Virus record (IMG/VR): IMGVR_UViG_3300005098_000017
Coordinates: 32,001-96,000 of that record
DNA: 64,000 bases
Reading direction: 5' to 3' (one strand)
Origin: a virus
Translations under genes and position numbers: made by a program
The notes under the pieces: generated by a model
The model's input: the letters and a program-made list of their open reading frames with translations, nothing else
Database searches by the model: none
What the model was told of the DNA's origin: nothing
Shown: positions 8,600 through 24,969 of the stretch, in pieces
How positions within the stretch are numbered: the stretch's first letter is position 1
Layout: each line of letters opens with the position of its first letter

Positions 8600-8687
8600 T
8601 CCATTACCCAACCATAACCAAGCCAAACCATGCAGGCCAGCACTGAGTCTACGAAGTCCACCAAGGTCCACCAACCCTCCACAAACC

Positions 8688-8796: not shown

Positions 8797-8957
8797 GAAG
8801 AGGCCTATGGCGCCTGCTGGCTTCGTCGGGCTTCGCTCGACCTCTGATGGGTTTCGTTAGGTATCCTGACCTCGCTGGCTGGTTTTCGGCGGAAATTTGG
8901 CATTGTTGCAGCATGTTTGGCTCCTTGCTTGGTTATGTTTGGTTGTTGTTTTTTGTG

Positions 8958-8970
8958 CCAGTAGATTGAC
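8958..8970 (-). promoter_or_regulatory. GTCAAT-N4-TGG motif (candidate phage-RNAP promoter)
   Basis: GTCAATCTACTGG. Confidence 0.55.
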
Positions 8971-8972
8971 TA

Positions 8973-9251
8973 TTATGTAGGTACATGTGCACCTCTTATG
9001 AATTCTTTTAATCTTATGGGTTCATCGTGTAATATGAGGATGCTTGCGTTGTTGCGTGCTATGATATCGCGCCAGAATTCATCCGGTGTGACATATGTAT
9101 TACTTATTATGATGATGCCTTTGATTTGAGCTACTTTCATCCATAGAGGGATGTGCTGCTGAACATATAGGCATGGTATATCTTGTGGTGCTATTATGCT
9201 ATAGATACGGCGGAAGGAGAAGGGGAAGCCGCCACCTCTGCTGGCAGCCAT
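8973..9251 (-). CDS. hypothetical protein
   Basis: ORF only. Confidence 0.45.
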   Translation of the reverse strand: MAASRGGGFPFSFRRIYSIIAPQDIPCLYVQQHIPLWMKVAQIKGIIIISNTYVTPDEFWRDIIARNNASILILHDEPIRLKEFIRGAHVPT

Positions 9252-9616
9252 GGTGGTTCATCGGGTTCGTTGTTAGTTGGAGGTTGATCTACTCGTGGTA
9301 GTGGATGTATCTCCTTGCGTGAGAAGATGAAGGAAGCCCCGCCTTCTTTATATATATCATATAAATTACTAATAACATCACTTTTATTAAATATATAATT
9401 CCACACGAGTAGGTTATCTTGGTTCGTAAATGCTGGTTCTAAATACAACTTAGGAGGGATACCTATTTTAGTTGGACTGAGTATGACATAGTAGTAATCG
9501 TCTGTCATGAAGCCCGCGCCTCCTTTTTTTATCACCTCTCTTTCTCTTCGCCGCCCCTCCCTTGCCCCACCGCCCCGCTTCATCGCCCTGCCTATGGTTA
9601 TGATATATTTTACCAC
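9194..9616 (-). CDS. hypothetical protein (start uncertain)
   Basis: internal AGGAGG before MTDDYY suggests a later start. Confidence 0.5.
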   Translation of the reverse strand: MVKYIITIGRAMKRGGGAREGRRREREVIKKGGAGFMTDDYYYVILSPTKIGIPPKLYLEPAFTNQDNLLVWNYIFNKSDVISNLYDIYKEGGASFIFSRKEIHPLPRVDQPPTNNEPDEPPWLPAEVAASPSPSAVSIA

Positions 9617-9697
9617 ATTATAATGAAAATTTTATTATCTTCAAGATTTTCTTTTCTTTCTTTCCTCATTGCGATGCCGACAGTTATGGTTTAGTTA

Positions 9698-9710
9698 CCG
9701 CAAAATTGAC
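9698..9710 (-). promoter_or_regulatory. GTCAAT-N4-CGG motif
   Basis: GTCAATTTTGCGG, followed by TAACTAAA as at 13001. Confidence 0.55.
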
Positions 9711-9726
9711 CAAAAAAATTTACGGT

Positions 9727-11703: not shown

Positions 11704-11704
11704 A

Positions 11705-11914
11705 TTATGACCTCCTTGCTAGATCTTCTATATCATCACGGATCATCGCGAGGAACCTATACAGGTCGTCTGCAGATGCTTCGCCTCTTTCGTACTTATC
11801 CAGAAGTGTGACGATTGACTTTCTTAGTTCTATCAGGAAATCGGCGGCTTCATTATCAAACGAGACGGATGTGGCAGCTAGCTCTAACGCCCTATTTATA
11901 TCTATTTTACTCAC
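11705..11914 (-). CDS. hypothetical protein
   Basis: coupled ORF. Confidence 0.6.
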   Translation of the reverse strand: MSKIDINRALELAATSVSFDNEAADFLIELRKSIVTLLDKYERGEASADDLYRFLAMIRDDIEDLARRS

Positions 11915-12132
11915 TTCGTTCTCCCCGTGAGTTTATCAGCCATCTTCGCGGCACATTTTATACAGTACGGCCCGAAGGTTTTTTCGGTCTGAAACGCTCG
12001 ATAGTCATCCTCATCATCGCTGGTTTTTCTTATGTTACCAGCAACGATGAGGAATGCGAGGTCCTTCGGACCATAATTTTTACCACATATTTTACATTTC
12101 CATTTTTTGTTTTTCTTGAATAGCATACTCAT
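11911..12132 (-). CDS. small Zn-finger protein
   Basis: CKIC...CIKC, AGGAGG RBS. Confidence 0.65.
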   Translation of the reverse strand: MSMLFKKNKKWKCKICGKNYGPKDLAFLIVAGNIRKTSDDEDDYRAFQTEKTFGPYCIKCAAKMADKLTGRTK

Positions 12133-12188
12133 CCTCCTTTTCAGGTGAGGCCCCGCTCCTGCCCCACCCCGCCGCCCCCATCAGCTTA

Positions 12189-12626
12189 TTAAGCTTCTTG
12201 GGCGGCCTTCTTCATCGCATAAAATTCCTTGAGCTCTTTTGCGCTCAAGCCCAGCTTAACAGCACCAGTCATAATAACAGGCACCGATACCACAGGTGGC
12301 GCCATCGTTGCGATGATAGCACCAGTTATAGCTCTTCCTACATTCAGCATGGATTTCAGCGTGTAATGTTTTATGTCTTTACATTCCTCAGGTCTTATAT
12401 CCTTGGTTAACGCCGTACTTCCGAGGACGACCTTGGCAACGGGCCCAACGATCGGCAGCAATGTCAGGCCAGCGCCGATAGCCATGGTTGGCTTATCGGC
12501 CTCTATGATCGCGTTTCTTGCCGTTTGATATTTTTCCTTTATGAAGCCGCGGCTTCTTTCTGCTATATCCTTTATCTTTTCGCGCGGCTTCACCTTCTTT
12601 ACTTTCATAGCGAGTTTCTTTACCAC
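12189..12626 (-). CDS. putative membrane protein
   Basis: hydrophobic segments, AAGGAGG RBS. Confidence 0.65.
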   Translation of the reverse strand: MVKKLAMKVKKVKPREKIKDIAERSRGFIKEKYQTARNAIIEADKPTMAIGAGLTLLPIVGPVAKVVLGSTALTKDIRPEECKDIKHYTLKSMLNVGRAITGAIIATMAPPVVSVPVIMTGAVKLGLSAKELKEFYAMKKAAQEA

Positions 12627-12627
12627 A

Positions 12628-12972
12628 TTACACCTCCTTGCTTCTGATTTTTATTAGCTCCTCCTCTATTTTTATATCAGGATCCATCACAAAGAAGATG
12701 AGGCGCGCGTACCTGTTAACAGGATAATCAGGATAACCACCGATTGTTTCCCATGTGTGCAGACATATTATATATGTATCGCTTTTATACACGACCTCAA
12801 GCTCATCATATGTGCAACAGTCTCTTAGCATGTTACCAGAATTAGCTATCCATCTCTGTCCTACTTCTGCTTTTTCTAGGTCACTCCATGTAATCGTAAT
12901 CTCATCGCCCTCTCCATTATAGTCGAGGGCCGCGAGTCTGAATGCAATGTTCTGCTGCACTGTTTCTACCAT
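12628..12972 (-). CDS. hypothetical protein
   Basis: RBS, preceded by motif at 13001. Confidence 0.7.
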   Translation of the reverse strand: MVETVQQNIAFRLAALDYNGEGDEITITWSDLEKAEVGQRWIANSGNMLRDCCTYDELEVVYKSDTYIICLHTWETIGGYPDYPVNRYARLIFFVMDPDIKIEEELIKIRSKEV

Positions 12973-13000
12973 CCTAATACCTCCTTGTTTGTTTTAGTTA

Positions 13001-13013
13001 CCACTAAATTGAC
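13001..13013 (-). promoter_or_regulatory. GTCAAT-N4-TGG motif
   Basis: GTCAATTTAGTGG, 15 nt before AGGAGG. Confidence 0.65.
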
Positions 13014-13025
13014 ACCCGCCGGGCT

Positions 13026-13217
13026 TCACTCCTCCTCATATTCCTCCTTGTAGTATTTTTCCTGATCCGGTAACAATTCTACCAATGTCCCGCAGTATAC
13101 GCATTCATATGGAGGGTTGTCGATCCTGGCATTTTTTCCCGTCCACATTCCACACACAGGACATATCACATTGCCTGTAACGCTTACATCACCTATAACG
13201 GCGATTTTTTCACACAT
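13026..13217 (-). CDS. Zn-ribbon protein (start revised to MCEK)
   Basis: AAGGAGG before ATG at 13217; CPVC...CVYC. Confidence 0.65.
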   Translation of the reverse strand: MCEKIAVIGDVSVTGNVICPVCGMWTGKNARIDNPPYECVYCGTLVELLPDQEKYYKEEYEEE

Positions 13218-13396
13218 TTTTACCTCCTTCCTGCCTTTTTCCTTACTGTTAAACATTATCCTGCGGGGCTTCCGCCCCCACCGCCCGCCCCTTAAAGGCG
13301 GCGGCTTCTTATGTCCTCTGACCCTATGATACACAATATAAACGATGCTGCTAATAATGGTAACACAGCGAGTAACATCTTGATCCTCCTTTTGTG

Positions 13397-13669
13397 TCAG
13401 ATCGATTCCTTTTTCTTCCCAAGCAGTGCACTCAGTTGGATGTATATGCTTATAAGAACGCTCGCGATTAACCCTATTATCATGCCGGTTACCCCGACGA
13501 ACAGGGTAACCCCAACAGCTACCAGAATGCAGCTGATAGCGAAGTCTCTTAAGTAGCGATTATCCTTGAGTCCCTTTATCAGCCCTCGTTTCTTTATCTG
13601 TTTCAGTCCTTTCGTCAGACTTATATACATCCATACTAAGCCCGCGGCTGCTATCAAATATAACAGCAT
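13397..13669 (-). CDS. small membrane protein (start revised to MLLYL)
   Basis: AAGGAGG RBS, hydrophobic segments. Confidence 0.6.
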   Translation of the reverse strand: MLLYLIAAAGLVWMYISLTKGLKQIKKRGLIKGLKDNRYLRDFAISCILVAVGVTLFVGVTGMIIGLIASVLISIYIQLSALLGKKKESI

Positions 13670-13696
13670 GATCACACCTCCTTGCTTTTTTATTCG

Positions 13697-13709
13697 CCAT
13701 TTGATTGAC
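13697..13709 (-). promoter_or_regulatory. GTCAAT-N4-TGG motif
   Basis: GTCAATCAAATGG, 13 nt before AGGAGG. Confidence 0.65.
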
Positions 13710-13979
13710 CGAGCGGTTATGATATCATGGCCGCCAATGCTTCGGTGGCTTCCGGCGGCCCTTCTTTTTCTTTCTCTTGTCCTCAAACACCCTGCCCGGC
13801 TTAATGGGACCGATTACCTCCCTTGATAGGTATTTAATCATTTTCAGCACTTCGCTGCCGGGCTTCTTTCCTTTGCGGCGCTTCCTCTTGCTCATTACCC
13901 ACCGCCTTTGCGAAAAGGGGGGAGGGGGCCCCAAACATCAGGACCTCCTCCCATCTGCTCTGGCTACCCTCAGCTATTC

Positions 13980-14363
13980 TTAAAACGGCGCTTCCTCGTT
14001 ATCTTCCTCCTCAACTGGCTCAGGTGTGGATGCAGGCCTGCTCCGATGCCAGCTCGGACGCATGAACTCACCGATCGCTACTTTACATATCATTTGGAAC
14101 ACTGGAAGGGTGCAGATCTTGGTCTTGCCAAGCTTCACAACCTTACCATCGGATGTGAGGGTCTTGATGGTACCATCGTTTCTTTCATGCATAATTTTCC
14201 ACTCAGGTTTCGCTGCGCACATGGCAACCTCGGTACCATTTAGGCTGATAGAATTTCTGATAGCGTTATTGCTTGTTGAGCGGAGCATGATGAACAACCT
14301 GTTAGGACGTCTTTGAACACTAATACCACAATACGTCTTGTCAGTAATACGGAAGGTAAACAC
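13980..14363 (-). CDS. possible SSB-like protein with acidic C-terminal tail
   Basis: ends EEEDNEEAPF, like bacterial SSB tails. Confidence 0.45.
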   Translation of the reverse strand: MFTFRITDKTYCGISVQRRPNRLFIMLRSTSNNAIRNSISLNGTEVAMCAAKPEWKIMHERNDGTIKTLTSDGKVVKLGKTKICTLPVFQMICKVAIGEFMRPSWHRSRPASTPEPVEEEDNEEAPF

Positions 14364-14389
14364 GCTACACCTCCTTTCTTTTTGGTTTT

Positions 14390-14402
14390 CCAGTTGATTG
14401 AC
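14390..14402 (-). promoter_or_regulatory. GTCAAT-N4-TGG motif
   Basis: GTCAATCAACTGG before AGGAGG. Confidence 0.65.
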
Positions 14403-14407
14403 TATGC

Positions 14408-14788
14408 TTAATTTTGGTTTCCATCTCCCTCGTGTGGACAGTAATATATTTTTACATAGTCGTAGATTCTGCCAAGGCTGTCGCCATAGTCTTTTCTGAA
14501 GATCAGCATTCCGCCTCTGCCGAGCTTGAACCTGACTGTCCTCTTCTTACATTGCGCAAGCCCCGAACTCCAGGAGCGTTCGTGTTTCTCTACGATTTTA
14601 TAGTTTCCTGCTAGGATTCTGGAGTCGGCGCTGAAATTAGCGCCCATTCCGTCCAATTCCTCGACCTCGTGCTCCTCTTCTTTTCCGCATATTTCAATTA
14701 TTATCTCTACGTTCCCCTTTTCCCAGGATTCCCAAGGAAGATCTGGGTACCTTGTCTTGGCTTTTTCTATTACCTTTTTCCTTTCCAT
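14408..14788 (-). CDS. hypothetical protein
   Basis: RBS and upstream motif. Confidence 0.7.
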   Translation of the reverse strand: MERKKVIEKAKTRYPDLPWESWEKGNVEIIIEICGKEEEHEVEELDGMGANFSADSRILAGNYKIVEKHERSWSSGLAQCKKRTVRFKLGRGGMLIFRKDYGDSLGRIYDYVKIYYCPHEGDGNQN

Positions 14789-14815
14789 TTTACCTCCTTT
14801 CTTTGTTTTTTAATA

Positions 14816-14828
14816 CCATTAAATTGAC
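14816..14828 (-). promoter_or_regulatory. GTCAAT-N4-TGG motif
   Basis: GTCAATTTAATGG before AGGAGG. Confidence 0.65.
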
Positions 14829-14989
14829 TTTTTGAGGTAGAATGGTAGCGCTATTAGTCCAGCAATGAGGCCGCCGCATTGGGCAGCTGTTACATTGCCA
14901 GTTAAGATCGCAATGAGAAGTGATGTTGGGAATGCAACCGCGAAGCCGACGGCTGCTCCCCTTAATGAGGCTCTTAATACTCTCTTCAT
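14819..14989 (-). CDS. 56-aa membrane peptide (not in ORF track)
   Basis: AAGGAGG then MKRVLRASLRGAAVGFAVAF...YLKKSI. Confidence 0.6.
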   Translation of the reverse strand: MKRVLRASLRGAAVGFAVAFPTSLLIAILTGNVTAAQCGGLIAGLIALPFYLKKSI

Positions 14990-15255
14990 TTCCCCTCCTT
15001 GTTGATAAACGAGCGCACTGTGGTTATCAATCTCTCCTTAGCCTCCTCGGCGCGCTCCTTAATCTCTTTCTGTCCTATCCTTTTCAATCTCAGGAATCGG
15101 AAGAATCCTATGACTCCAACCGCTGCTAACACGGCACCCACTGTGCCGCCTAACAACAACGCCAATATAGCGGTAACCCAGCATGCAAAGTCGGGCTCAT
15201 CGCTGATTATGTATGGTGCGAAGTAAGCAGGGATGGCCAATATGATCCTATGCAT
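14986..15255 (-). CDS. small membrane protein
   Basis: RBS, hydrophobic. Confidence 0.65.
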   Translation of the reverse strand: MHRIILAIPAYFAPYIISDEPDFACWVTAILALLLGGTVGAVLAAVGVIGFFRFLRLKRIGQKEIKERAEEAKERLITTVRSFINKEGK

Positions 15256-15345
15256 TTTTACCTCCTTCTGATGAGAACATCATAGCTATTATCGTGCCTA
15301 GACAAAAGCCTAGCAAAAAGCTAATATATCCTATATATTCCGGGA

Positions 15346-15537
15346 TCATAGTTCTCTTACCTCCGCTTTTATGTTTTCGAGTCCCTCCTTCTCAATCTTT
15401 TTTACCATGTTTCTGAGGCGGGTTATCATTACCCACCTCCGTATTTCATTGATGATTATGCCGATTCCGATGGCTATGAGGAACAACCCAGCAACTACCA
15501 TTGTGCTTTTTGCAGCTATATCCATTAGAACTACCAT
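15346..15537 (-). CDS. small membrane protein
   Basis: RBS, N-terminal TM segment. Confidence 0.65.
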   Translation of the reverse strand: MVVLMDIAAKSTMVVAGLFLIAIGIGIIINEIRRWVMITRLRNMVKKIEKEGLENIKAEVREL

Positions 15538-15729
15538 TTATACCTCCTTTGACTCCAATAATGCTTTCTGAAGCGCGTCTATGATGAATTGCGCTTCGTG
15601 ATTCCATAACTTCTGGACGAAGATAGCACCGTCCCGATAGTTGATAAACGAGATCATGATCTTCCGAGGGTCATACTTGTCATTAACCGTTTGCACCGAT
15701 ATCTCGAGATCTTCTGATTTATACTCCAT
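15538..15729 (-). CDS. hypothetical protein
   Basis: RBS and upstream motif. Confidence 0.65.
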   Translation of the reverse strand: MEYKSEDLEISVQTVNDKYDPRKIMISFINYRDGAIFVQKLWNHEAQFIIDALQKALLESKEV

Positions 15730-15753
15730 TATTATTACCTCCTTTTTTTTATT

Positions 15754-15766
15754 CCATCAGATTGAC
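15754..15766 (-). promoter_or_regulatory. GTCAAT-N4-TGG motif
   Basis: GTCAATCTGATGG before AGGAGG. Confidence 0.65.
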
Positions 15767-15883
15767 CCTCCTCCCCTCCTTGGTATGGCGGGGCTTATGG
15801 TGGGACAAGGGGAGAGAGCTTGGTGAGGGAGACCTTTTAAGGGATCAAGGTGGGAGAGGGGAGGAGAGCCGTGTTAATCCCTC

Positions 15884-16123
15884 TTACTTATAATGTATTT
15901 TGATTAGAGCCTGCTTTCCATACTTCCATCTAAGCCTCCGCTTCAGTTCACTAACGTCCGCAGCAAAAACCTCGTGGAGGCCGTCAGTTCTGGTAAACTT
16001 CCAGCATTTTATGTTACCAACCTGTGTCGGTTTCCCGTGTGGAACATAAGCATGTACTGTCTCCTTCGTCCTCACGGAGATTATATCTATGTTTTTTACT
16101 AACGGATAAAATTTCAACGACAT
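15884..16123 (-). CDS. hypothetical protein (start revised to MSLKFY)
   Basis: AAGGAGG RBS downstream of pseudoknot. Confidence 0.65.
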   Translation of the reverse strand: MSLKFYPLVKNIDIISVRTKETVHAYVPHGKPTQVGNIKCWKFTRTDGLHEVFAADVSELKRRLRWKYGKQALIKIHYK

Positions 16124-16148
16124 AGAATACCTCCTTTTTTTTAATGTG

Positions 16149-16201
16149 AAGCCCGCCATTAAATCGAAGCGCGCAACCCGGCGGGCTTAGGTCGCGCGCT
16201 T
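16149..16201 (-). ncRNA. 5'-UTR H-type pseudoknot PK1
   Basis: stem AAGCGCGCGACC/GGUUGCGCGCUU; loop AAGCCCGCC pairs with GGCGGGCUU. Confidence 0.7.
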
Positions 16202-16214
16202 ATTTTTTATTCCA

Positions 16215-16227
16215 CCATTTTATTGAC
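16215..16227 (-). promoter_or_regulatory. GTCAAT-N4-TGG motif
   Basis: GTCAATAAAATGG just upstream of PK1. Confidence 0.65.
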
Positions 16228-16886
16228 TATAGCCAGTCGACTTTAGCATATGGCTTGCCGTTTACATACCACCTCTTCTCGGACGTTATGAGCACGGTTT
16301 CATAGCGCTCAAGTGGGTAATCGTTACGCTCCCTCACCACGACAGCTTTAGGCTCAGGGATGATGGCATCGGTACCATGTGGAGGTGTGGGAGGGAAAAT
16401 TGAAACGAGCTGACGTGGAAGGATGACAAGAGAAAGGTGTTTGCCTTTCTGTTTGATGCGACTCCTGATGGTCTTCTCGAGACCCTTCTCGACGATTACG
16501 TAGCCATACGAATCCGCAGCCTCCTGGGCGAGTGTGTTCGCCATTTTATTCCCTGTTCTGGCTGTGTGTTTTACAATAACCTCCTTATGCTGGTTATCAG
16601 CGTAGTACCTAGCCAGCTCATATAATTCCATAAGCTCAGGCTTCTTAATATCATATTCTTGGTTAAACTGCTTCACCACTAACTGTGAGTCGCTGTGTAT
16701 TGTGGTATCACCCTGGATGTACTGGCTAATGTATGTCGCAAGAACTAGTGCTGCCCATTCAGCCTCGTTGTTTGTTGCCTCCCCAATGGGTATTGATAGT
16801 GATATACCAACCTCCGGAATATATATCCCAATCCCAGCGGGACCGGGATTGCCTTTTGATGAGCCATCAATGTAAATGTTAGTCAT
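16227..16886 (-). CDS. rnhA: ribonuclease HI with C-terminal extension
   Basis: [31 protein letters not shown] (last Asp replaced by Asn). Confidence 0.85.
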
Positions 16887-16900
16887 AATACCTCCTTTAT

Positions 16901-17323
16901 TTATGGTTTAACTTTTCGTAAGCCGAGGCAACCTATCGGTCGTATGCTTCCACTGCTGGTCTTTTCATATACAGGATGAGCAATCGTGTATAACTTGTCT
17001 ACGTTAGGTAGGTTGAGAGCAACTGCTGCAGAAGCATATTGATTACTAACAATTATTATATCAGCATCATCAGGGATGGGATCAATATCCTGCACCCTCT
17101 GTGTTATAACTGGGATCATAACCTCATCGTTCACTGGACATTCGTAAAAGATGCTCGGAAGTAATTCAGTTTCATGATGGACGTTCAGAAGGGTTCCAGA
17201 GGGTGGAATTATGATAACTAGCTTGGTTTTTCCAGGTTCTATGAAGTATTTCCTGTGTTCACTTATGTAAACAGCATCCTCAAAAATACATATCTCGTGA
17301 GGAGTGCAGTTTAAGATTTTCAT
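16901..17323 (-). CDS. conserved phage hypothetical protein
   Basis: ILNCTPHEI...IPPSG...IIVS...IGC pattern; RBS. Confidence 0.75.
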
Positions 17324-17345
17324 TACATACCTCCTTTTATTAGGC

Positions 17346-17404
17346 GGGCCTCATTACACCCCATGCAGAGCAGCAGGGCGAGGCCCTTAACCCTGAAGCT
17401 CTGC
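17346..17404 (-). ncRNA. 5'-UTR H-type pseudoknot PK2
   Basis: stems GCAGAGC/GCUCUGC and CAGGGU/GCCCUG; loop GGGCCUC pairs with GAGGCCC. Confidence 0.6.
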
Positions 17405-17419
17405 GAAGAAAGAGAGCTA

Positions 17420-17752
17420 TTAGGACAAGCGTTCTGCTTCCTGTCTAATCCGAACGGCATCCCTTACTACCTCTAACAGCGAAGGCGGTATAACCCTATT
17501 GTTCGAGGTTTTCCCAGTGCGCAAATCAACTGCGACAGCACAATCATGCTCGTAAAAGTATACTATATCCCCATCCGGGAAGAATGTTCCATTAGCAGTA
17601 GCAACATTATAAATCAGATCGTTGGTGTATTCGCCGGGATCGCGATATGGTGTATAATGATCCTGAGCGTCCGGTGTTTCACAACCGGTAGTGCTTCTCA
17701 CACATACATCACACCTGCCACTTCTACACAGACGGCACTTATCAAATAACAT
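17420..17752 (-). CDS. Cys-rich hypothetical protein
   Basis: RBS downstream of PK3. Confidence 0.7.
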   Translation of the reverse strand: MLFDKCRLCRSGRCDVCVRSTTGCETPDAQDHYTPYRDPGEYTNDLIYNVATANGTFFPDGDIVYFYEHDCAVAVDLRTGKTSNNRVIPPSLLEVVRDAVRIRQEAERLS

Positions 17753-17778
17753 AATACCTCCTTATTTTAATGTTTTAT

Positions 17779-17833
17779 GCCCGCCATTAGAACCAAGCCA
17801 GGTGAGGCCGGCGGGCTTAGCCCTACCCGGCTT
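17779..17833 (-). ncRNA. 5'-UTR H-type pseudoknot PK3
   Basis: stem AAGCCGGGU/ACCUGGCUU; loop AAGCCCGCC pairs with GGCGGGC. Confidence 0.7.
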
Positions 17834-17842
17834 TTTTAATTT

Positions 17843-17855
17843 CCAGCTGATTGAC
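17843..17855 (-). promoter_or_regulatory. GTCAAT-N4-TGG motif
   Basis: GTCAATCAGCTGG upstream of PK3. Confidence 0.65.
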
Positions 17856-18221
17856 CTATACAAGAGATGGTCCAACTGCATCCTGAACCTGAGGCTTTCC
17901 ATACTCAAGCTTCCACCCATTCTTCGGTCGTAAATTTCTCTTGAACCATTCGAACCATGCACGATCCATGACAACGATCTTCTTACTTCTTCTGAATGCA
18001 ACTGCAATCCACTTGCGGTTACCAGTCCTGTTAATCCTGAAGAACCATACGATATCATTAGCATGTAGTTTACCACTGCGTACTAGCCTGGCCCACTGGC
18101 TGCTCTTCTCAGGATTCTGAGCAGCCAATACAAATGTGTAACTATTTTTCCACCTCGCTATAGAGGTGGTGCCTCCCAGAATCTTGGGGAGGTTGATTTT
18201 TAGAAACTGAGTCAATGACAT
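17856..18221 (-). CDS. basic hypothetical protein (start revised to MSLTQF)
   Basis: GAGGAGG RBS downstream of PK4. Confidence 0.7.
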   Translation of the reverse strand: MSLTQFLKINLPKILGGTTSIARWKNSYTFVLAAQNPEKSSQWARLVRSGKLHANDIVWFFRINRTGNRKWIAVAFRRSKKIVVMDRAWFEWFKRNLRPKNGWKLEYGKPQVQDAVGPSLV

Positions 18222-18245
18222 AATACACCTCCTCTTTTGGAGGTT

Positions 18246-18303
18246 GCCTGCCACTTTTACCCACAGATAAGGCGAGGCCGGCAGGCTTTACCCCGCCTTA
18301 TCT
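18246..18303 (-). ncRNA. 5'-UTR H-type pseudoknot PK4
   Basis: stem AGAUAAGGCG/CGCCUUAUCU; loop AAAGCCUGCC pairs with GGCAGGC. Confidence 0.7.
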
Positions 18304-18310
18304 TATCACT

Positions 18311-18323
18311 CCAGCTCATTGAC
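18311..18323 (-). promoter_or_regulatory. GTCAAT-N4-TGG motif
   Basis: GTCAATGAGCTGG upstream of PK4. Confidence 0.65.
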
Positions 18324-18412
18324 TCCATCACGAGCCAACAAGCCGGCCAAACCCTCCGGCACTCTTGCGGCACCGCTCCTCGCAGGCCGCACACAGGGGA
18401 GGAGAGGCTTGG

Positions 18413-18479
18413 GGAGGCCTCTTAGACCCTCTATGAGGGAGCTCCAGCGCCACGTCAAGGCGGGCCTCCAGTGCTGGAG
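18413..18479 (-). ncRNA. HDV/CPEB3-like ribozyme fold, copy A
   Basis: P1 CUCCAGC/GCUGGAG, P2 GGAGGCC/GGCCUCC, P3 GCC/GGC, L3 UUGACGU, P4 CCCUC/GAGGG, J4/2 UCUAA. Confidence 0.8.
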
Positions 18480-18577
18480 TAGCCCCCCGGTGCGGGGGCT
18501 TCATTTTTTTCACCTCCTTTCTAGCGGGATGAACTAGCCCGGCCATCTAGCCCATCCCGCGGTTTAAGGTTTAACCT

Positions 18578-20983
18578 TTAATCAAGTTTCCAGAAGTTGA
18601 GCCAGAATTCGCGATCGGCAGTAGCAAGAGGATGAAGACCAACAGGGGTTTTGATTCCAAGAATCCGCGCGAGCTGCCAGTTGCGCTTCTTACCAGTATG
18701 CAGTTCTACAAGAAAGCGTACATGTGCTTCAAGATCAGATTCAGTACCGGCAACAATAGCCAAGAAATCGCTCTCAGCGACAGTAAGAGATTTCCAAGTG
18801 GTAAGAATCGCCTGAGGTTCAAATCTAGCAAGAAGCCTGCGGAAACGCCTGTTTAGCCTCCGGAAGTTCCTAGTAAGAAGTACACGAAGTTCAGATACTT
18901 TACTCGCAAGGAAGCGCCGACGCCTGTCGAGCTCTCTGCGCCGCCTGCCAAGGGTAGCCAGAGCATCAGAAAGGTGATCAAGCCTAGGTAGCAGCCACTT
19001 TTCCATTTTTCGCCTCAGAACTTCGTTTCTGATCCCAGATGCTAGGAACCTGACTTTAGTTTCAGGTCTCGCATTAGCGAAGAGTCTACGGCTCCGATTA
19101 ACTACCGTATCAATCGCCGTTACTTTCTCTGCAAGAGCATTCACTTCATTCTCTATCTTCCGTATTCGAGAGAGCGTCCGTCCGAACATGCGCCTCCTTA
19201 TGCGATCCCACTTGAGGAACAATGCCTTAACTTCTGGATCAATGGTGCCATCAGGAATAAGATCCTTAAGAGACCTAACCTCTGGCTCAGCAAACTCAAC
19301 TTCAGGAATAAATTCAGCAAGAGGACCTGTTGGAGTTATTGCTACTGGATCCGCCTTCGCAGTCCTATTAGCGATCATTTGAGTAACAGTATCAAGCCTG
19401 GCAGTCGTACTCGCGAGTAGATGCAGTCCCGCTTCTACCTCATGACGAAGCTCCGGTTCTTTACCATTAGCAAGATTCACTGCAGCTTGGAGTAGCGCTC
19501 CAGTTCTCGCAACAAGATCCATATTAAGTTCAGTATCAGAAAGAAGCATTCGGGTAAAACCAGCATCAGCTCTCGCAATCATTTCCTTACCCAGCTCAAT
19601 ATTTTCCACTTCGGTACTAGGATCCATTCTCCACTCTCCGAAAGATATCTCCTTTATCCGGCTTCGTACGCTATCGAAGAATTCCTTAGCAACGAGAGGT
19701 TCCTTGAAGACCTTGGATGCCGCGGCGAGAGCCACTTTGTCGCCATCGGCATCCCATCCGCTAGGCATATCTGCAGGGTGTACCAGAATCGCATGCGCAC
19801 GATGGTCAACAATAATAGGAAGGATAAGAGTATCACCAGGCAAGATGGGCGACTTCTGTATGAGTAGGAGTTCTCCATCTTTCAGACCAAGCATCCGTGC
19901 AATCACAGGAGGAATAACAGCAGTGCCGGGATGTGCATTCTGAAATCCCAGATAGAAGCCCGGGCCTAGTCTCAACTTCCGAAGTGCAATCTTTAAGTGG
20001 TCCAGAAGCACTCTCCGCAGGAAGCCTGCCTCCTTTATGAGGCCGAATTTCCGCAGAATATCAGCAGTCAGAGTCAGCACTGCACTAGGTTCATTGATCG
20101 GATCAGCGTTTTTAACAAGGATATCAGCCGCTACCTCAGGATCAGAAAAACCATTAATAGCTTCAGCAATCTGCTCCTGAATCCGTTCAACAAACTCAGG
20201 CGCTGGATTAACATTCCATCCGAGTTTCCTTGGTAGAAGGAACCAGCGCGGCAGAGCTTGGCTGAGACTGATGCCGCCCGCGAATACGGCACCAACCTCA
20301 TGCAGCATGATGGTTCGCCCGAGTTCGAGTACGAAGCGCCGCCTCTTGATGAGTTTTGCGGTGTCAGCATCAGCAACGATATCAGTCCCTGTTTCCAGCT
20401 CCGTGAGGACCTCATCTGCAAGAGCTTCATTTCCAAGATACAACATCAGCCTCTGGAACCCAACTCTGCCGGGAAGAACTGGTACCGCTATCCCTTTCAG
20501 ACCAATAGCAGTCACTTTAAATCCATTCTTCACAAGAGCACGGGTAACCTTAGAAACCTCAGCCTCTGTAGGAGCATATGCTGCTGCCACAAGTTTTGTA
20601 AACCGTTCGCTAACGAAGAAGATCCCATCCACATTCATTTTCATATTGAGCTTGAGACCACGGATGCGAAGATCCATACCAGCCACACGTTCCGGCTTGA
20701 AATCCCAGCCTTTATTCGGAATTTCCGGCGTTGTCATCATCTGGATGCGCTTTCCAGGAAGAGATCTCAGATCAAATTCAGGATCACCGAGAATATTCGC
20801 AATCACTCTATTAACAGTCTCTATAGCAGAAGTAGGAACCACCTTGAAGATCCTACAATCTGGAATCATAGTAGGCTTCATTGGAAGATCAGAGTTCAGA
20901 TCAGGATCAAATGCGAAGAAGACACTAGCACCAGCTTCAGTAAATAACGCTTGCAGAGGAGACCTCGGTATTCTTTCCATCAT
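18578..20983 (-). CDS. single-subunit two-barrel (DPBB) RNA polymerase, eukaryotic RdRP/YonO-like (start revised, 801 aa)
   Basis: motifs DGIFFVS, GLKG, KSPILPGD and SGWDADGD in the same order as cellular RdRP DGIGxIS, GYKG, KNPCLHPGD and SGxDLDGD; AAGGAGGTG RBS before 20983. Confidence 0.8.
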   Translation of the reverse strand: MMERIPRSPLQALFTEAGASVFFAFDPDLNSDLPMKPTMIPDCRIFKVVPTSAIETVNRVIANILGDPEFDLRSLPGKRIQMMTTPEIPNKGWDFKPERVAGMDLRIRGLKLNMKMNVDGIFFVSERFTKLVAAAYAPTEAEVSKVTRALVKNGFKVTAIGLKGIAVPVLPGRVGFQRLMLYLGNEALADEVLTELETGTDIVADADTAKLIKRRRFVLELGRTIMLHEVGAVFAGGISLSQALPRWFLLPRKLGWNVNPAPEFVERIQEQIAEAINGFSDPEVAADILVKNADPINEPSAVLTLTADILRKFGLIKEAGFLRRVLLDHLKIALRKLRLGPGFYLGFQNAHPGTAVIPPVIARMLGLKDGELLLIQKSPILPGDTLILPIIVDHRAHAILVHPADMPSGWDADGDKVALAAASKVFKEPLVAKEFFDSVRSRIKEISFGEWRMDPSTEVENIELGKEMIARADAGFTRMLLSDTELNMDLVARTGALLQAAVNLANGKEPELRHEVEAGLHLLASTTARLDTVTQMIANRTAKADPVAITPTGPLAEFIPEVEFAEPEVRSLKDLIPDGTIDPEVKALFLKWDRIRRRMFGRTLSRIRKIENEVNALAEKVTAIDTVVNRSRRLFANARPETKVRFLASGIRNEVLRRKMEKWLLPRLDHLSDALATLGRRRRELDRRRRFLASKVSELRVLLTRNFRRLNRRFRRLLARFEPQAILTTWKSLTVAESDFLAIVAGTESDLEAHVRFLVELHTGKKRNWQLARILGIKTPVGLHPLATADREFWLNFWKLD

Positions 20984-21039
20984 ATCACCTCCTTTCCGCC
21001 GCGGATTTCGTTGCCCTCGGTGCGGCACTCCGAGGGTCG

Positions 21040-21124
21040 CCGGGCTTCGAGCGTCATTGGTGCCAAGGCTGGCCATAGAATGAAGCCCGGAAATTCTATG
21101 GCCATGGCCGGGCGCCTTGACACC
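21040..21124 (-). ncRNA. elaborated 5'-UTR pseudoknot PK5 (polymerase leader)
   Basis: stems GGUGUCAAGGC/GCCUUGGCACC and UGGCCAUAGAAU/AUUCUAUGGCCA; loop CCGGGCUUC pairs with GAAGCCCGG. Confidence 0.65.
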
Positions 21125-21155
21125 TCTGCTCTTTCGCGCATTTTATTTAACCTTA

Positions 21156-21596
21156 TTATCGATTAAATTCTCCATCCAATACAGCAAGCAGTAATCTTTG
21201 GAGTCTTCTTGGATCGGGTAAACCATATGCAATTCCATAGATTGGGGACCATGAATCCACATTCACCCTAACTGTTGTTCCCAAAATTTTGAATTCGAAA
21301 GCATAATCATCGATAGTATAGCTACCCTCCATTACCGATTGGAAAATGAGTGCGTCTACTAGATCCTCACAAGCCCACTCCGGATGTTGCTCAAGAATAA
21401 CTCTCTGGATCTCTAAAGTATCACACCAACCCACAATAACTCTACGTTCATCATCCATAACGTACCCCGACCGCAGATGCAAATTGTACCATTTCTCACC
21501 CACCTTGGCAGTTACCCAAGGCGGTGAGAAGTAGTAGTCGCCGACTTTAACTTTGTCGGCGATCCAGTCACCGATTACGTCCCACAACCATGACAT
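21156..21596 (-). CDS. hypothetical protein
   Basis: AAGGAGGTG RBS just after ribozyme B. Confidence 0.75.
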   Translation of the reverse strand: MSWLWDVIGDWIADKVKVGDYYFSPPWVTAKVGEKWYNLHLRSGYVMDDERRVIVGWCDTLEIQRVILEQHPEWACEDLVDALIFQSVMEGSYTIDDYAFEFKILGTTVRVNVDSWSPIYGIAYGLPDPRRLQRLLLAVLDGEFNR

Positions 21597-21627
21597 TTTA
21601 CACCTCCTTTAGTTTGACTTTCTTCTC

Positions 21628-21699
21628 GAGGGACTCTTAGATCCCGCATAAGCGGGAAGCCCCGGCGCCACGACAAGGCGGTCCCTCAAAAAGCCGGGG
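21628..21699 (-). ncRNA. HDV/CPEB3-like ribozyme fold, copy B
   Basis: P1 CCCCGGC/GCCGGGG, P2 GAGGGAC/GUCCCUC, L3 UUGUCGU, P4 UCCCGC/GCGGGA, UCUAA; begins immediately after the stop codon of 21700-22170. Confidence 0.8.
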
Positions 21700-22170
21700 T
21701 TAACTCAATTTGACATCATTATTATCCTTCTCTTTCTTTATCCACTCTATCAATTCATCCACTAGGCGCTCCACATTATAATCATCAATAATAAGAAGCG
21801 CCCTCCTGACCTTGTAGCCGAGCACCTCATGCGCTTTTAGCACATGCCTCGGCATCCAAGGCCAGGTCTCATTGTATCCCCCATTATATTTGATTTGGAG
21901 AAGGATTACCTCCTTCTTATGGGGGATACCAATGCTGACGTCGATTTTAAATACGACGTCAGCTTTACTCCCGACAGGATAGTCTATTAATTTCCATCCC
22001 GCCGGAAGCTTGGAGGATAGTTCTTCAATGAATCTATCCTCCGCTTCGAAGCCAGCTCTATGCGCCTCATGTGCGATAGAGCTAACCTCGAAATCCGGGC
22101 GGATTATTTCATGACATTCCGCCCAGAATTTTCGCGCTATAGTGCGGGCCTTCTCCATTTCATTTCTCAT
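21700..22170 (-). CDS. possible PD-(D/E)XK nuclease-fold protein
   Basis: GFEAEDRF...D...IDV...LQIK spacing. Confidence 0.4.
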   Translation of the reverse strand: MRNEMEKARTIARKFWAECHEIIRPDFEVSSIAHEAHRAGFEAEDRFIEELSSKLPAGWKLIDYPVGSKADVVFKIDVSIGIPHKKEVILLQIKYNGGYNETWPWMPRHVLKAHEVLGYKVRRALLIIDDYNVERLVDELIEWIKKEKDNNDVKLS

Positions 22171-22233
22171 TTATTACTCCTCCATATGCATTCCGCCAAG
22201 GAAGTGACAAGTCCCCAAGGTCTTCTACCGTTG

Positions 22234-23070
22234 TCATAATATCACCTCCCTTACTTTGATAACAGGGTTAACCCAATCAACAAAATGATAGATTTTGTTT
22301 ATACGAGGGGGACAACCTTGGTCTCCCTTTATTTCGATATCATTATGATCAGCTATCCATACCTCATGAAACTGATTAAACAGTTTCTTAAATATAGGCG
22401 CCGCCTCCATCTCATATCCCGGCTTAACCTCTATATTATTCGCCAGAAGAACATTATCGTTACCGGTCACCGCTACCATAAGCGCACGAATCTTATTGTT
22501 TTCCACATCTTCCATCACATATGTGATGGCATCACCAAACGTCATGGTGTGCCATCCGTCATGGAAGATGTGTGCGCAGCAATGTACATGGAACCCTAAG
22601 AACGGAAATCTTGGATCTTTACGCGATAGTGGACGAAGTAACCAGCGTTCCGTTCTAATTACAGGTAAATCTGTTATGTCCACAGCCGGTAATGAGATCC
22701 ATTCCCGAAATAATTTCTGAATTTTACCACTATGAAGGTCTATTTTTGTATACCTTGGATGCCACCGCCAAAATTCTTTCCAAAATTCGCGGTGGCCATA
22801 TCGTCTAGCCCAAGATGTCACCAAGTTTTCCCTCGGTGACATCCTCTCATCGAGGCCTGTTTCATTAGCGGCCTCAATGAGATGGGGGCTTAGTGGCCCC
22901 CTAAACTTAAAGATATACCCTGCAAATTCTGGCCGCAAAAGTGGCGTTAGAAGCCACAAGGCATCGCGGCCGATTTTATTTAAATTATCACGGCCGTATG
23001 CCCTTATGGCTATCTCGATAAGAGGTTGCAATGTCTTATTCTTCATCAAGCCTTCCAAATATGCATTCAT
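22234..23070 (-). CDS. hypothetical protein (LG..CC..NNIE motif, PcfJ-like by weak resemblance)
   Basis: AAGGAGG RBS; family call from recalled motif only. Confidence 0.55.
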   Translation of the reverse strand: MNAYLEGLMKNKTLQPLIEIAIRAYGRDNLNKIGRDALWLLTPLLRPEFAGYIFKFRGPLSPHLIEAANETGLDERMSPRENLVTSWARRYGHREFWKEFWRWHPRYTKIDLHSGKIQKLFREWISLPAVDITDLPVIRTERWLLRPLSRKDPRFPFLGFHVHCCAHIFHDGWHTMTFGDAITYVMEDVENNKIRALMVAVTGNDNVLLANNIEVKPGYEMEAAPIFKKLFNQFHEVWIADHNDIEIKGDQGCPPRINKIYHFVDWVNPVIKVREVIL

Positions 23071-23107
23071 TTTTACCTCCTTTATTTTTATACATATTCT
23101 CCATTTT

Positions 23108-23166
23108 TGCCCGCATTAGTTTACCAAGGGCACCATCTGACCTGCGGGCATTGATCAGATGGCGCC
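23108..23166 (-). ncRNA. 5'-UTR H-type pseudoknot PK6
   Basis: 14-bp stem GGCGCCAUCUGAUC/GGUCAGAUGGUGCC; loop AAUGCCCGCA pairs with UGCGGGCA. Confidence 0.7.
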
Positions 23167-23232
23167 TATATACAAAATGGGCACCGTATAGTCATGGTAA
23201 CAATACGGTGCCCTCACAACATCCCCTTTTAT

Positions 23233-23310
23233 TAGGGTGCTCTTAGACCCTTAGGGATTGGACCTAAGGGAGCCCCTCCACCACGTCAAGGTGGCACCCT
23301 ATCGGAGGGG
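23233..23310 (-). ncRNA. HDV/CPEB3-like ribozyme fold, copy C
   Basis: P1 CCCCUCC/GGAGGGG, P2 UAGGGUGC/GCACCCUA, P3 ACC/GGU, L3 UUGACGU, P4 CCCUUAGG/CCUAAGGG, UCUAA. Confidence 0.8.
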
Positions 23311-23363
23311 TAGCGGGGTCTTGGACCCCGCTCTTGACTCTTGAGGCCGGCCGGTTTATTTTT

Positions 23364-23570
23364 TTAATATTTCCTGTAATCATGATACAAATGGATTATA
23401 CTTTCATACCTGCCAAATATTTTGACAGGCATAGCATGCAAATCTGTTACTTTCATGCCTTCATAGAAGAATTGACCTTCTCCAAAATACTTATGGAGAA
23501 GGTCTGTTTCCTTTATAGGATGATCTAGCAAGAACAAAACTCCTTCTTTTATAAACCCAATCACCGGCAT
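23364..23570 (-). CDS. 68-aa cassette protein (start revised to MPVIGF)
   Basis: AGGAGG directly after PK7. Confidence 0.7.
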   Translation of the reverse strand: MPVIGFIKEGVLFLLDHPIKETDLLHKYFGEGQFFYEGMKVTDLHAMPVKIFGRYESIIHLYHDYRKY

Positions 23571-23582
23571 GATAAACCTCCT

Positions 23583-23643
23583 CGCCGCACCTTGGTTCAA
23601 CTCCCAGTATGCATACGGTGCGGCACTTATATGCATACTGGGA
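23583..23643 (-). ncRNA. 5'-UTR H-type pseudoknot PK7
   Basis: 15-bp stem UCCCAGUAUGCAUAU/GUAUGCAUACUGGGA; loop AAGUGCCGCACC pairs with GGUGCGGCG. Confidence 0.75.
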
Positions 23644-23659
23644 TACCGGCCGGCCTTAT

Positions 23660-23734
23660 GGACACTCTTAGACCCTTAGGGATTGGACCTAAGGGAGCCC
23701 TCCAGCCACGTCAAGGCGGTGTCCTTCTGGAGGG
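23660..23734 (-). ncRNA. HDV/CPEB3-like ribozyme fold, copy D
   Basis: P1 CCCUCCA/UGGAGGG, P2 GGACAC/GUGUCC, P3 GCC/GGC, L3 UUGACGU, same P4 as copy C, UCUAA. Confidence 0.8.
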
Positions 23735-23786
23735 TAGCAAGGCCATCATGTGAGACCTTGCTTTGGCTTGGGCGGCAAATCCTTCC

Positions 23787-23993
23787 TTAAAATTCGTAAT
23801 ACCAGACTTTTTTTCCAATTCTTTCAATATATTTGGCAAGTTTCCTTACTTTTCTAGTAGGTCTACCACCTGTGTAAGCCATACCTGATACCAAAGGCCT
23901 AAGAAGACTGACTCTGCCATCTGGAAATAATTCCCCAACAAACCTGATCAAATCCTTGCCTATCCAGAGATCAACTATAACTGTCCTTGTCAT
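23787..23993 (-). CDS. 68-aa cassette protein
   Basis: AAGGAGG directly after PK8. Confidence 0.7.
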   Translation of the reverse strand: MTRTVIVDLWIGKDLIRFVGELFPDGRVSLLRPLVSGMAYTGGRPTRKVRKLAKYIERIGKKVWYYEF

Positions 23994-24006
23994 TTTTTCC
24001 TCCTTT

Positions 24007-24067
24007 CGCCGCGGTCAGTTTTAACCACCAGTGGGCCCACACCGCGGCATTTATGGTACCCACTGGC
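24007..24067 (-). ncRNA. 5'-UTR H-type pseudoknot PK8
   Basis: stem GCCAGUGGGU/GCCCACUGGU; loop AAAUGCCGCGGU pairs with ACCGCGGCG. Confidence 0.75.
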
Positions 24068-24083
24068 TTGCCGCCCAAGCCAT

Positions 24084-24154
24084 CGGACGCTCTTAGACCT
24101 AGCCACAAGGCTAGGAGCCCCTCCACCACGTCAAGGTGGCGTCCGTCGGAGGGG
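24084..24154 (-). ncRNA. HDV/CPEB3-like ribozyme fold, copy E
   Basis: P1 CCCCUCC/GGAGGGG, P2 CGGACGC/GCGUCCG, P3 ACC/GGU, L3 UUGACGU, P4 CCUAGCC/GGCUAGG, UCUAA. Confidence 0.8.
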
Positions 24155-24207
24155 TAGCAAGACCCCAAGGGGCCTTGCCTCGTCTACGGGGGCGCCAATA
24201 GACCGTA

Positions 24208-24492
24208 TCAATAAACATCAACTAAGCACTTGATATACGGCCTGATTAAATACACATAATCTCCAATCCTCTTTATATTGTGGCTCGAAACAAGTTGCGA
24301 TTTAACACATACTTTCGCATGACTCGGAACTCTTATAACGTACCCAAAGTATAATCTTTGGCCAAGGAGGATCAAATCCTCCTTGTCCAAAACGATGACC
24401 CTGTGTGTGTAACCTTCATAGCGATCATCAGGGTATATTACTGCTGCAAATTCTTGCTCATGTATTCTCACATCTTCAATCCACACTATCAT
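24208..24492 (-). CDS. 94-aa cassette protein
   Basis: AAGGAGG directly after PK9. Confidence 0.7.
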   Translation of the reverse strand: MIVWIEDVRIHEQEFAAVIYPDDRYEGYTHRVIVLDKEDLILLGQRLYFGYVIRVPSHAKVCVKSQLVSSHNIKRIGDYVYLIRPYIKCLVDVY

Positions 24493-24507
24493 TTTATCCT
24501 CCTTTTT

Positions 24508-24568
24508 CGCCGCGCCTTGGTTCTACGCCCAGCATGTACGCGGCGCGGCATTTACGCACATGCTGGGC
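24508..24568 (-). ncRNA. 5'-UTR H-type pseudoknot PK9
   Basis: 15-bp stem GCCCAGCAUGUGCGU/GCGUACAUGCUGGGC; loop AAAUGCCGCGCC pairs with GGCGCGGCG. Confidence 0.75.
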
Positions 24569-24686
24569 TGGCGCCCCCGCAATCCCCTATTAGCCGAGGA
24601 AGCAAATCAAAAATCAAGGGGGCAGGGGGGTCGAAATACAATCCGACCCCCTCAAAATCCACAATAGAGACCTCCTGAATTTTTTG

Positions 24687-24720
24687 CCGGTTTTTTGACC
24701 CTTATAGGCCTACGATTGAC
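24687..24720 (-). promoter_or_regulatory. two variant GTCAAW motifs heading the cassette array
   Basis: GTCAATCGTAGG and GTCAAAAAACCGG. Confidence 0.35.
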
Positions 24721-24743
24721 TCCATCAAATGGGGAATTACCTC

Positions 24744-24771
24744 TTGACATGTGCATTCAAATATTTAATAT
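24744..24771 (+). promoter_or_regulatory. sigma70-type promoter
   Basis: TTGACA-N16-TAATAT. Confidence 0.5.
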
Positions 24772-24810
24772 TTAGTATGTAGGTATTAAATTATAACAAG
24801 GAGGTTGGAT

Positions 24811-24969
24811 ATGTTGGTATTTAGGAGGTATACGCATCCTAGGGAGGTTCGCTGGTTGGGCTGGATAGAGACTCATGATGGTTGTTGTGTTGGGTTTATT
24901 AGGCTTGATGGTAGGGTTGTATTTGATTGGGATTCTGGGTTCTCTGGTAGTAATAGTAGTGTTAATTGA
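24811..24969 (+). CDS. 52-aa protein (not in ORF track)
   Basis: AAGGAGG RBS, MLVFRRYTHPREVRWLGWIE..., own promoter and terminator. Confidence 0.7.
   Translation: MLVFRRYTHPREVRWLGWIETHDGCCVGFIRLDGRVVFDWDSGFSGSNSSVN

Follow-up and report, generated by a model that had tools for sequence, protein, structure and literature searches.

Ten copies of one RNA fold lie in the leaders of minus-strand genes of a phage and form an uncatalogued, covariation-supported pseudoknot family in a modular phage expression cassette, whose function we infer. The DNA analysed here, referred to as the window, is a stretch of 64,000 nucleotides (nt) that covers bases 32001-96000 of a single 147,433-bp contig, virus record IMGVR_UViG_3300005098_000017. 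From about 24.7 kb down to 0.3 kb of the window nearly all genes lie on the minus strand, and the pseudoknots are found in the first 8.5 kb of this block. Each element consists of a hairpin (S1) whose loop holds a short segment (L1) and a GC-rich strand (S2a). After a linker (L3) the complementary strand (S2b) follows and pairs with the loop to form a second helix (S2), and behind it come a strong Shine-Dalgarno (SD) sequence and the start codon of an open reading frame (ORF). Positions are those of the window and refer to the minus strand unless stated otherwise, and the copies are called A to I, with E1 and E2, in the order in which they follow each other along that strand.

Fold, covariation and distribution

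Relatives of the phage were taken from contigs of ENA, JGI and Logan metagenome assemblies, and the handles L001 to L025 used below refer to them. In three close relatives with 93%, 85% and 80% protein identity the pseudoknots are kept at matching positions (close relatives L001 and L006 carry ten each, L003 five), and distant relatives with 30-40% identity carry single knots of the same design. Counted over the four closely related phage genomes, the family comprises about 35 instances, to which the single copies of the distant relatives are added.

Using one fixed criterion, a scanner reported eight folds on the minus strand between 16100 and 24700, compared to a mean of 0.07 and a maximum of one in 100 dinucleotide shuffles, and the plus strand of the same region gave none. 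Copy C escapes this fixed-criterion scanner and was recovered by a stricter scanner and by plain folding. For a given hairpin, the match between loop and 3' strand reached p values of 0 to 0.04 per copy against shuffled downstream sequence, and 0.15 for E2, the weakest copy. In the whole genome, the sole other fold of comparable strength is located inside a ligase ORF.

Comparison of orthologues revealed that 40 of the 45 changed S1 pairs are still paired, 14 of them by double changes. For S2, five out of ten changed pairs are still paired (two by double changes), and the breaks fall mostly on terminal pairs. A formal count in two subfamilies found 85-87% of S1 paired and both sides changed in 7-8 of its 11 pairs, and S2 paired to 100%, with one and three such double changes in the two subfamilies. 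The S1 covariation score of 0.59 compares to 0.24 after shuffling (0/500 shuffles reach 0.59) and to 0.03-0.16 with the pairing partner slid. Copy I illustrates the pattern: its flanks are 68-73% identical between genomes, loop, L3 and the spacer to the SD are conserved to about 100%, S2b and SD are almost unchanged, and the identical loop is served by three different S1 sequences across three genomes. In general, S2, L1 and the end of L3 are far more strongly conserved than the S1 arms. Both helices thus carry compensatory changes, as the covariation check suggested by the initial annotation of this region demanded. Based on the fold scans and the covariation, the fold is therefore real, acts at the RNA level and belongs to the minus strand, and by its pairing of loop and 3' strand together with covariation in both helices it is an H-type pseudoknot. 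The assignment to this strand, which the annotation had derived from G-U pairs, holds: such pairs are present, and the complementary strand yields no fold. A covariance model built from F, G and I recovers these classes only, and D and H remain at chance level even with filters switched off; the divergence among paralogue classes is too large for one model to cover. When all copies were aligned with MAFFT, the alignments came out of register and were excluded from the counts.

The fold within the ligase ORF (10809-10878; the ORF encodes 658 aa) is strong and pseudoknot-like, and it is kept in relatives (L001:13331-13400; L006:16651-16720), where substitutions preserve the pairing.

Strand reading, folding of each site and two independent scanners located all nine elements of the annotation at their places on the minus strand. 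A tenth and smaller copy, E2, which was absent from that list, is situated between E1 and a polymerase-like gene. The claim of one design despite unrelated stems is borne out by the measured anatomy. The S1 core hairpin comprises 12-15 bp (7 bp in E2), is interrupted by a single bulge or internal loop in B, G and H, and its sequence is unrelated between copies. L1 has 2-4 nt and mostly ends in AA; S2a is GC-rich, has 8-10 nt (6-10 nt if E2 is included) and abuts the 3' arm of S1 without a spacer; L3 has 8-13 nt, again mostly with AA at its end, and is extended to 21 nt in E1. The sequence of S2 varies among paralogues, with at least six types. The strong SD follows S2b at a distance of 1-32 nt. 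Short gaps of 1-5 nt separate the two in A, B, C and E2 as well as in D of L001 and L006, and longer ones of 10-32 nt in D of the window and in F, G, H and I; in six copies the knot ends no more than 5 nt from the SD purine tract. Every copy is non-coding RNA upstream of a strong SD. If the helices stack, they span 21-24 bp or roughly two helical turns, and for both helices at 80 °C we computed -6 to -9 kcal/mol. The correlation between S1 length and linker length is weak on inspection.

Copy A (24568-24508) combines an S1 of 15 bp (24568-24554/24541-24527) with an S2 of 9 bp (24550-24542/24516-24508), followed after 5 nt by the SD of ORF 24492-24208; its orthologues in L001 and L006 show compensatory changes in S1. 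Copy B (24072-24007; S2 24049-24041/24015-24007) stands 3 nt ahead of the SD of ORF 23993-23787, behind the first of the ribozyme candidates (candidate A) and a 5' closing arm, both described below. In copy C (23647-23583) a core S1 of 15 bp (23643-23629/23616-23602) and S2 (23625-23617/23591-23583) leave a single nucleotide to the SD of ORF 23570-23364. Copy D (23166-23108; S1 14 bp; S2 23150-23143/23115-23108) precedes ORF 23070-22234. The element ending at 21040, copy E1 (21113-21040), is the most divergent, as had been recognised in the annotation, with a core S1 of 12 bp, UU as L1, the 21-nt L3 and S2 at 21090-21082/21048-21040; compensatory S1 changes are found in L003 and L025. Copy E2 (21042-20997; core S1 7 bp; S2 21027-21022/21002-20997, 6 bp) is followed after 4 nt by the SD of the polymerase-like ORF 20983-18578 and is kept in L001, L003, L006 and L025.

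The remaining copies lie further along the strand. Copy F (18303-18246; S1 14 bp; S2 18286-18279/18253-18246) precedes ORF 18221-17856. On the 3' side of this knot, a small hairpin (18225-18245) pairs CCUCC with the SD of the 121-aa gene; F is the sole copy with an evident SD-masking stem, which is weaker in L003 and L006. Copy G (17833-17779; S2 17816-17809/17786-17779) has an S1 of 13 bp with one mismatch and belongs to ORF 17752-17420, and the intercistronic copy H (17408-17346; S2 17386-17379/17353-17346), whose S1 contains a 2x2 internal loop, belongs to ORF 17323-16901. Copy I (16201-16149; S1 12 bp; S2 16188-16179/16158-16149) precedes ORF 16123-15884. In G and I an unstructured A/U-rich tract connects the knot to the ribosome-binding site (RBS).

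In line with the annotation, which had recognised no described family, Rfam 15 returned no match for the whole window at gathering threshold, and at E-values of up to 5 over 15900-24900 only four chance-level matches, none of them an H-type knot family. Full-text literature searches for leader knots of this design found none described. Phage GenBank records gave no match when searched with the DNA and with the polymerase-like protein, and IMG/VR gave none with that protein or with a loop/S2/SD pattern of the UGCCGC type. A pattern of the GCCCGC type matched 11 times in IMG/VR, and every match was rejected as a plain terminator-like hairpin without the knot design. GTDB genome contigs, searched with the polymerase alignment and with TnpB, contained no relatives, and only five homologue clusters of the polymerase-like protein exist among 1.8 billion representatives. 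Metagenome runs that contain 21-39% of the words of the stretch are labelled as hydrothermal-vent or marine-sediment metagenomes, and these labels suggest a hot habitat of the phage. No RNA run is listed among those that contain the stretch.

The cassette around the pseudoknots

A candidate promoter motif, GTCAAT-N4-YGG, occurs in ten copies on the minus strand (8958-18323), every one at or just upstream of leader regions. By arithmetic, about one copy per strand would be expected by chance in 64 kb. The motif may be a promoter that the phage's own polymerase recognises. It precedes the start of knots F, G and I by 8-15 nt, with the respective copies located at 18323, 17855 and 16227. Seven further copies (15766, 14828, 14402, 13709, 13013, 9710 and 8970) lack a knot, and behind five of them a short A-rich leader runs straight to the SD; the knot is therefore an optional insert.

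Besides, other motifs are visible in non-coding parts of the same block. A G-rich motif, GGGGCGG-N-GGGG, recurs on the minus strand in intergenic leaders at about 13260-13300, 12150-12185 and 9560-9600, and once within the ligase ORF (about 10870-10885). A 240-nt non-coding stretch holds about a dozen imperfect repeats of about 11 nt (TTGTAGGACC-like; 8640-8830), and this run may represent iterons or a protein-binding array.

A second kind of neighbour comprises five candidates for ribozymes resembling that of hepatitis delta virus (HDV), at 24154-24084, 23734-23660, 23310-23233, 21699-21628 and 18479-18413. They were recognised by their strand order (P1, P2, P3 hairpin, P1', P4 hairpin, a constant UCUAAGAG joiner and P2') and by P1 and P2 arms that covary between copies, and the element is also present in L001, L003 and L006. 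The Rfam HDV models gave no match to the candidates at E-values of up to 5 over 15900-24900. The distance from a candidate to the knot behind it is 12-13 nt for B and C and 67 nt for D. About 110 nt, including the promoter motif, separate the fifth candidate from F, and behind the fourth there is an SD but no knot. Between the third candidate and D, an 11-bp GC-rich hairpin with a U-rich run (23170-23205) resembles an intrinsic terminator. HDV-class ribozymes cleave at their own 5' edge; therefore, the 5' terminus in B, C and D would be formed by the ribozyme instead of the knot.

The annotation had stated that the elements follow either the promoter motif or a ribozyme and hence sit near mRNA 5' ends. 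This applies to F, G and I behind the motif and, with regard to the order of elements, to B, C and D behind ribozyme candidates, even if in D the terminator-like hairpin intervenes and in all three the ribozyme would be the terminus. It does not apply to H, which is intercistronic and has neither element in front, nor to A, which lies about 130 nt below the nearest motif-like site.

In cassettes A, B and C only (23343-24579), additional closing arms of 11-15 bp pair bases just 5' of S1 with bases 7-9 nt past the stop codon, for example 24579-24569 with 24197-24187 and 24082-24068 with 23778-23764. None of 200 shuffles reached the energy of these arms for A, B and C, and the values for D to I are not significant.

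The strongest indication of gene independence is that leaders A, B, D, G and H stand in near-identical sequence ahead of non-homologous ORFs in different relatives. Behind leader D there are three different ORFs in the window, L001 and L006. For cassette B, the window and L006 (L006:4230-4870 examined) share about 90% identity over the upstream 3' arm, ribozyme candidate, 5' arm, knot and SD up to the ATG; the ORFs of 68 and 98 aa are unrelated, with about 45% identity, and past the ORF the identity is high again in the 3' arm and the ribozyme candidate that follows. The boundary of the exchange thus falls exactly at the start codon and the 3' arm. The knot is thus part of a conserved non-coding frame within which ORFs are exchanged.

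Function and rival explanations

We favour, tentatively and at somewhat less than even confidence, the interpretation that the knot is a cis-acting insulating and stabilising leader module that presents the SD. As a gene-independent and permanently folded part of a standard expression frame, it would serve the presumably early genes with which the minus-strand block begins (first 8.5 kb). It would shield the RBS from strongly folding neighbours such as ribozyme candidates, closing arms and upstream coding RNA, and offer the 30S subunit a fixed, structured platform beside the SD. In addition, it could act as a barrier against 5'-to-3' decay of the cistron behind it, irrespective of whether the 5' end is made by a promoter, by a ribozyme (leaving a 5'-OH) or by an endonuclease cut within the operon, and the high stability of the helices would suit a hot habitat. 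The literature offers precedents: ribozyme-made 5'-OH RNA is degraded by RNase J1 (PMC3997798), RNase J1 can be halted by a pseudoknot-containing RNA fold (PMC5760640), and RiboJ, a ribozyme plus hairpin ahead of the RBS, raises mRNA and protein levels (PMC6206723). Among the roles listed in the annotation, exonuclease block and translation enhancer remain plausible.

Several points weigh against this interpretation. In partition-function calculations, the knot raises RBS accessibility by 0.04-0.23 in A, B, C, E2 and F, with no rise in D, G, H and I; the computed gain is thus modest and confined to five copies, so that an unmasking of the SD is no more than a possibility. A-rich sequence surrounds the SD tracts, which seem to be accessible in any case. 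Moreover, the presence of a 5'-to-3' exonuclease in the host is assumed, and B, C and D would already be capped by the HDV-like fold, so that the knot would not be needed as an end cap there. Finally, S2, L1 and L3 may be so strongly conserved in sequence because a trans-acting factor recognises them.

In that case, the knot would be the operator for one global regulator, either an RNA-binding protein or an antisense RNA, which reads the S2/L1/L3 surface and switches the gene set jointly. Parallels are T4 RegA and the Inc RNA that blocks the repZ pseudoknot. Apart from the conservation of this surface, such a regulator would account for the fact that only some genes have a knot, all within the first 8.5 kb of the block and the polymerase-like gene among them, and for the six copies that end no more than 5 nt from the SD, a position from which a bound factor would act on the 30S subunit; L006 even encodes a KH-domain protein within its cassette region. 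However, this protein occurs in L006 only and is missing from the window, whose ORFs in the region contain no RNA-binding domain, S2 falls into at least six types among the paralogues, and a short helix can evolve more slowly than a long one without any trans factor. The autogenous variant is excluded because the same leader heads unrelated ORFs, so that the downstream product cannot be the regulator. Taken together, we consider a common operator unlikely, though worth keeping in mind. An action on the transcribing polymerase is a less probable explanation and would be either put-like antitermination or a bulky 5' fold that hinders the new transcript from pairing with the template again behind a minimal phage polymerase. 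Put RNA consists of two stem-loops, and the fold of the knot is unlike that. The start of F, G and I 8-15 nt past a candidate phage promoter would suit a signal to the polymerase, and so would the linkage of an RNase H gene to the polymerase-like gene in all relatives, either fused to it (L020:6497-9826, 1109 aa) or with the polymerase-like gene directly after it (L021:6943-10102); in the window, the RNase H gene (16886-16227) lies 1.7 kb downstream of the polymerase-like gene. The position of B, C and D behind ribozyme candidates, whose cleavage would sever an upstream RNA signal from the polymerase, also fits, as does the lack of flap and lid domains in YonO-type enzymes (PMC5467207). Against this stand the intercistronic position of H and the fixed closeness to the SD, which would be left unexplained, and the identity of the polymerase, which is based on an invariant GWDADGDK motif: the 801-aa protein found no match in Pfam, PHROGs or PDB sequences, and its AlphaFold model has a mean pLDDT (predicted local distance difference test score) of 49. 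Of the roles named in the annotation, antitermination or polymerase binding is the least favoured, since six of the ten knots end within 5 nt of the SD purine tract and at least seven leaders with the same motif have no knot.

Two further explanations appear very improbable. Unrelated stems of a common design and the exchange of ORFs directly beside the elements could point to an attC-like hairpin in the DNA that marks cassette junctions for recombination. A plain DNA hairpin needs no S2, though, and S2 pairing is 100% kept and covarying; the G-U pairs are A-C mismatches on the other strand, which shows no folds; position and spacing follow the SD; the edge of the exchange is the start codon and not the hairpin; and no integrase-type gene is found among the scanned ORFs of the region. 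Slighter still are the prospects of a small-molecule riboswitch of the H-type kind, such as preQ1-I, preQ1-II, SAM-II or fluoride riboswitches, which a leader pseudoknot near the SD brings to mind and in several of which A-rich L1 and L3 segments also occur. In contrast to these, the phage knots have no conserved pocket (S1 is unrelated and S2 of at least six types), leave the SD outside the fold and find no match in Rfam even at E-values of up to 5. The same leader serves unrelated ORFans, and the exchange of ORFs behind a constant leader argues against a metabolite riboswitch tied to a pathway. An intrinsic terminator was rejected as well: S1 runs into A-rich linkers, not U tracts, and since F, G and I lie 8-15 nt past their own promoter motif, a terminator there would abort its own transcript. 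A likeness of one S2 helix to a 16S rRNA helix, which involved an 8-mer match that could arise by chance, was dropped.

Relation to known leader elements

Pseudoknots next to the SD are already known as a kind of leader element, and with no catalogue entry and covariation support in both helices the phage family represents a new RNA family among them. In our analysis, the knot seems to resemble most the repZ activator pseudoknot and the insulators made of ribozyme and hairpin, and it is a member of neither. In the rep leaders of IncI-alpha, IncB and IncL/M plasmids (ColIb-P9), GC-rich bases immediately ahead of the SD pair with the hairpin loop of the activator pseudoknot, and the initiation region thereby stays open (PMC4705826, PMC8053102). 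The design of a loop pairing next to the SD, in cis and in the leader, is shared, and the phage knots may likewise affect translation. In the phage copies with gaps of 1-5 nt listed above, the 3' strand abuts the SD as in repZ, and in the others it is 10-32 nt away. In contrast to the 4 bp of the repZ pairing, S2 of the phage comprises 6-10 bp. Furthermore, the repZ pseudoknot is triggered by translation of a leader peptide and countered by an antisense RNA, whereas no leader ORF is obvious upstream of the phage knots; it allows initiation at a GUG start whose SD is weak and masked, whereas the phage SD is strong, looks open and gains little accessibility; and the phage genome contains ten copies.

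RiboJ (PMC6206723) shares the succession of a self-cleaving ribozyme (a candidate in the phage), a stable fold and an RBS, which gives a standard 5' untranslated region whatever lies upstream and fits the swapping of ORFs. As an insulating leader, the phage module would in effect be the counterpart in nature of such synthetic insulators. Differences are that RiboJ is engineered, that its hammerhead-type ribozyme discards the upstream RNA and that its fold is a plain hairpin. The phage candidate is HDV-like and would remain on the downstream RNA, and its fold is a pseudoknot that also occurs without a ribozyme.

A phage leader with an H-type pseudoknot is likewise found in T4, and there an unstructured A/U-rich tract to the RBS, as in G and I, also follows. 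The gene 32 element of T4 is located at the 5' end of the leader, exists as a single copy and mediates autogenous control by gp32. Leaders A, B, D, G and H of our phage, in contrast, head non-homologous ORFs, which excludes autogenous control of a single gene as described for the gene 32 leader (review PMC3014915).

With regard to RNA decay, the exoribonuclease-resistant RNAs (xrRNAs) of flaviviruses and plant viruses are compact pseudoknotted folds, and the phage fold could halt a 5'-to-3' exonuclease in a comparable manner. Flaviviral xrRNA is built on a three-way junction, and the phage fold differs from it as a simple two-helix pseudoknot with no junction in the secondary structure by which it is known. 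The flaviviral element adopts a ring-like fold around the 5' end (PMC12081666), and an xrRNA halts bacterial RNase J1 in vitro (PMC5760640). The 5' stabilisers of Bacillus mRNAs have a stable structure near the 5' end and/or a strong SD in common with the phage leaders, and protection from decay that depends on the 5' end, their known role, is the one proposed here for the knots. Examples are aprE, cryIIIA and SP82. Unlike the knots, the known stabilisers are plain stem-loops or SD-like sequences and do not form a repeated family within one genome; as a class they have been described for Bacillus (PMC3997798).

A bolder version of the decay barrier, which we regard as speculative and rather unlikely, is that the knots are protein-independent roadblocks to bacterial 5'-to-3' exonucleases, which together with the ribozymes and closing helices would make armoured, standardised mini-mRNAs open to any accessory ORF. 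If this was true, they would be the first xrRNA-like elements of a prokaryotic virus. Apart from this, the phage provides a natural cassette frame with ribozyme candidate, closing arm, knot and SD on one side of the ORF and 3' arm and hairpin on the other. Insulated expression cassettes, which in synthetic biology had to be invented, thus have a natural form here. If the proposed function holds, the knot would in addition be a compact and heat-stable leader part for expression in thermophiles.

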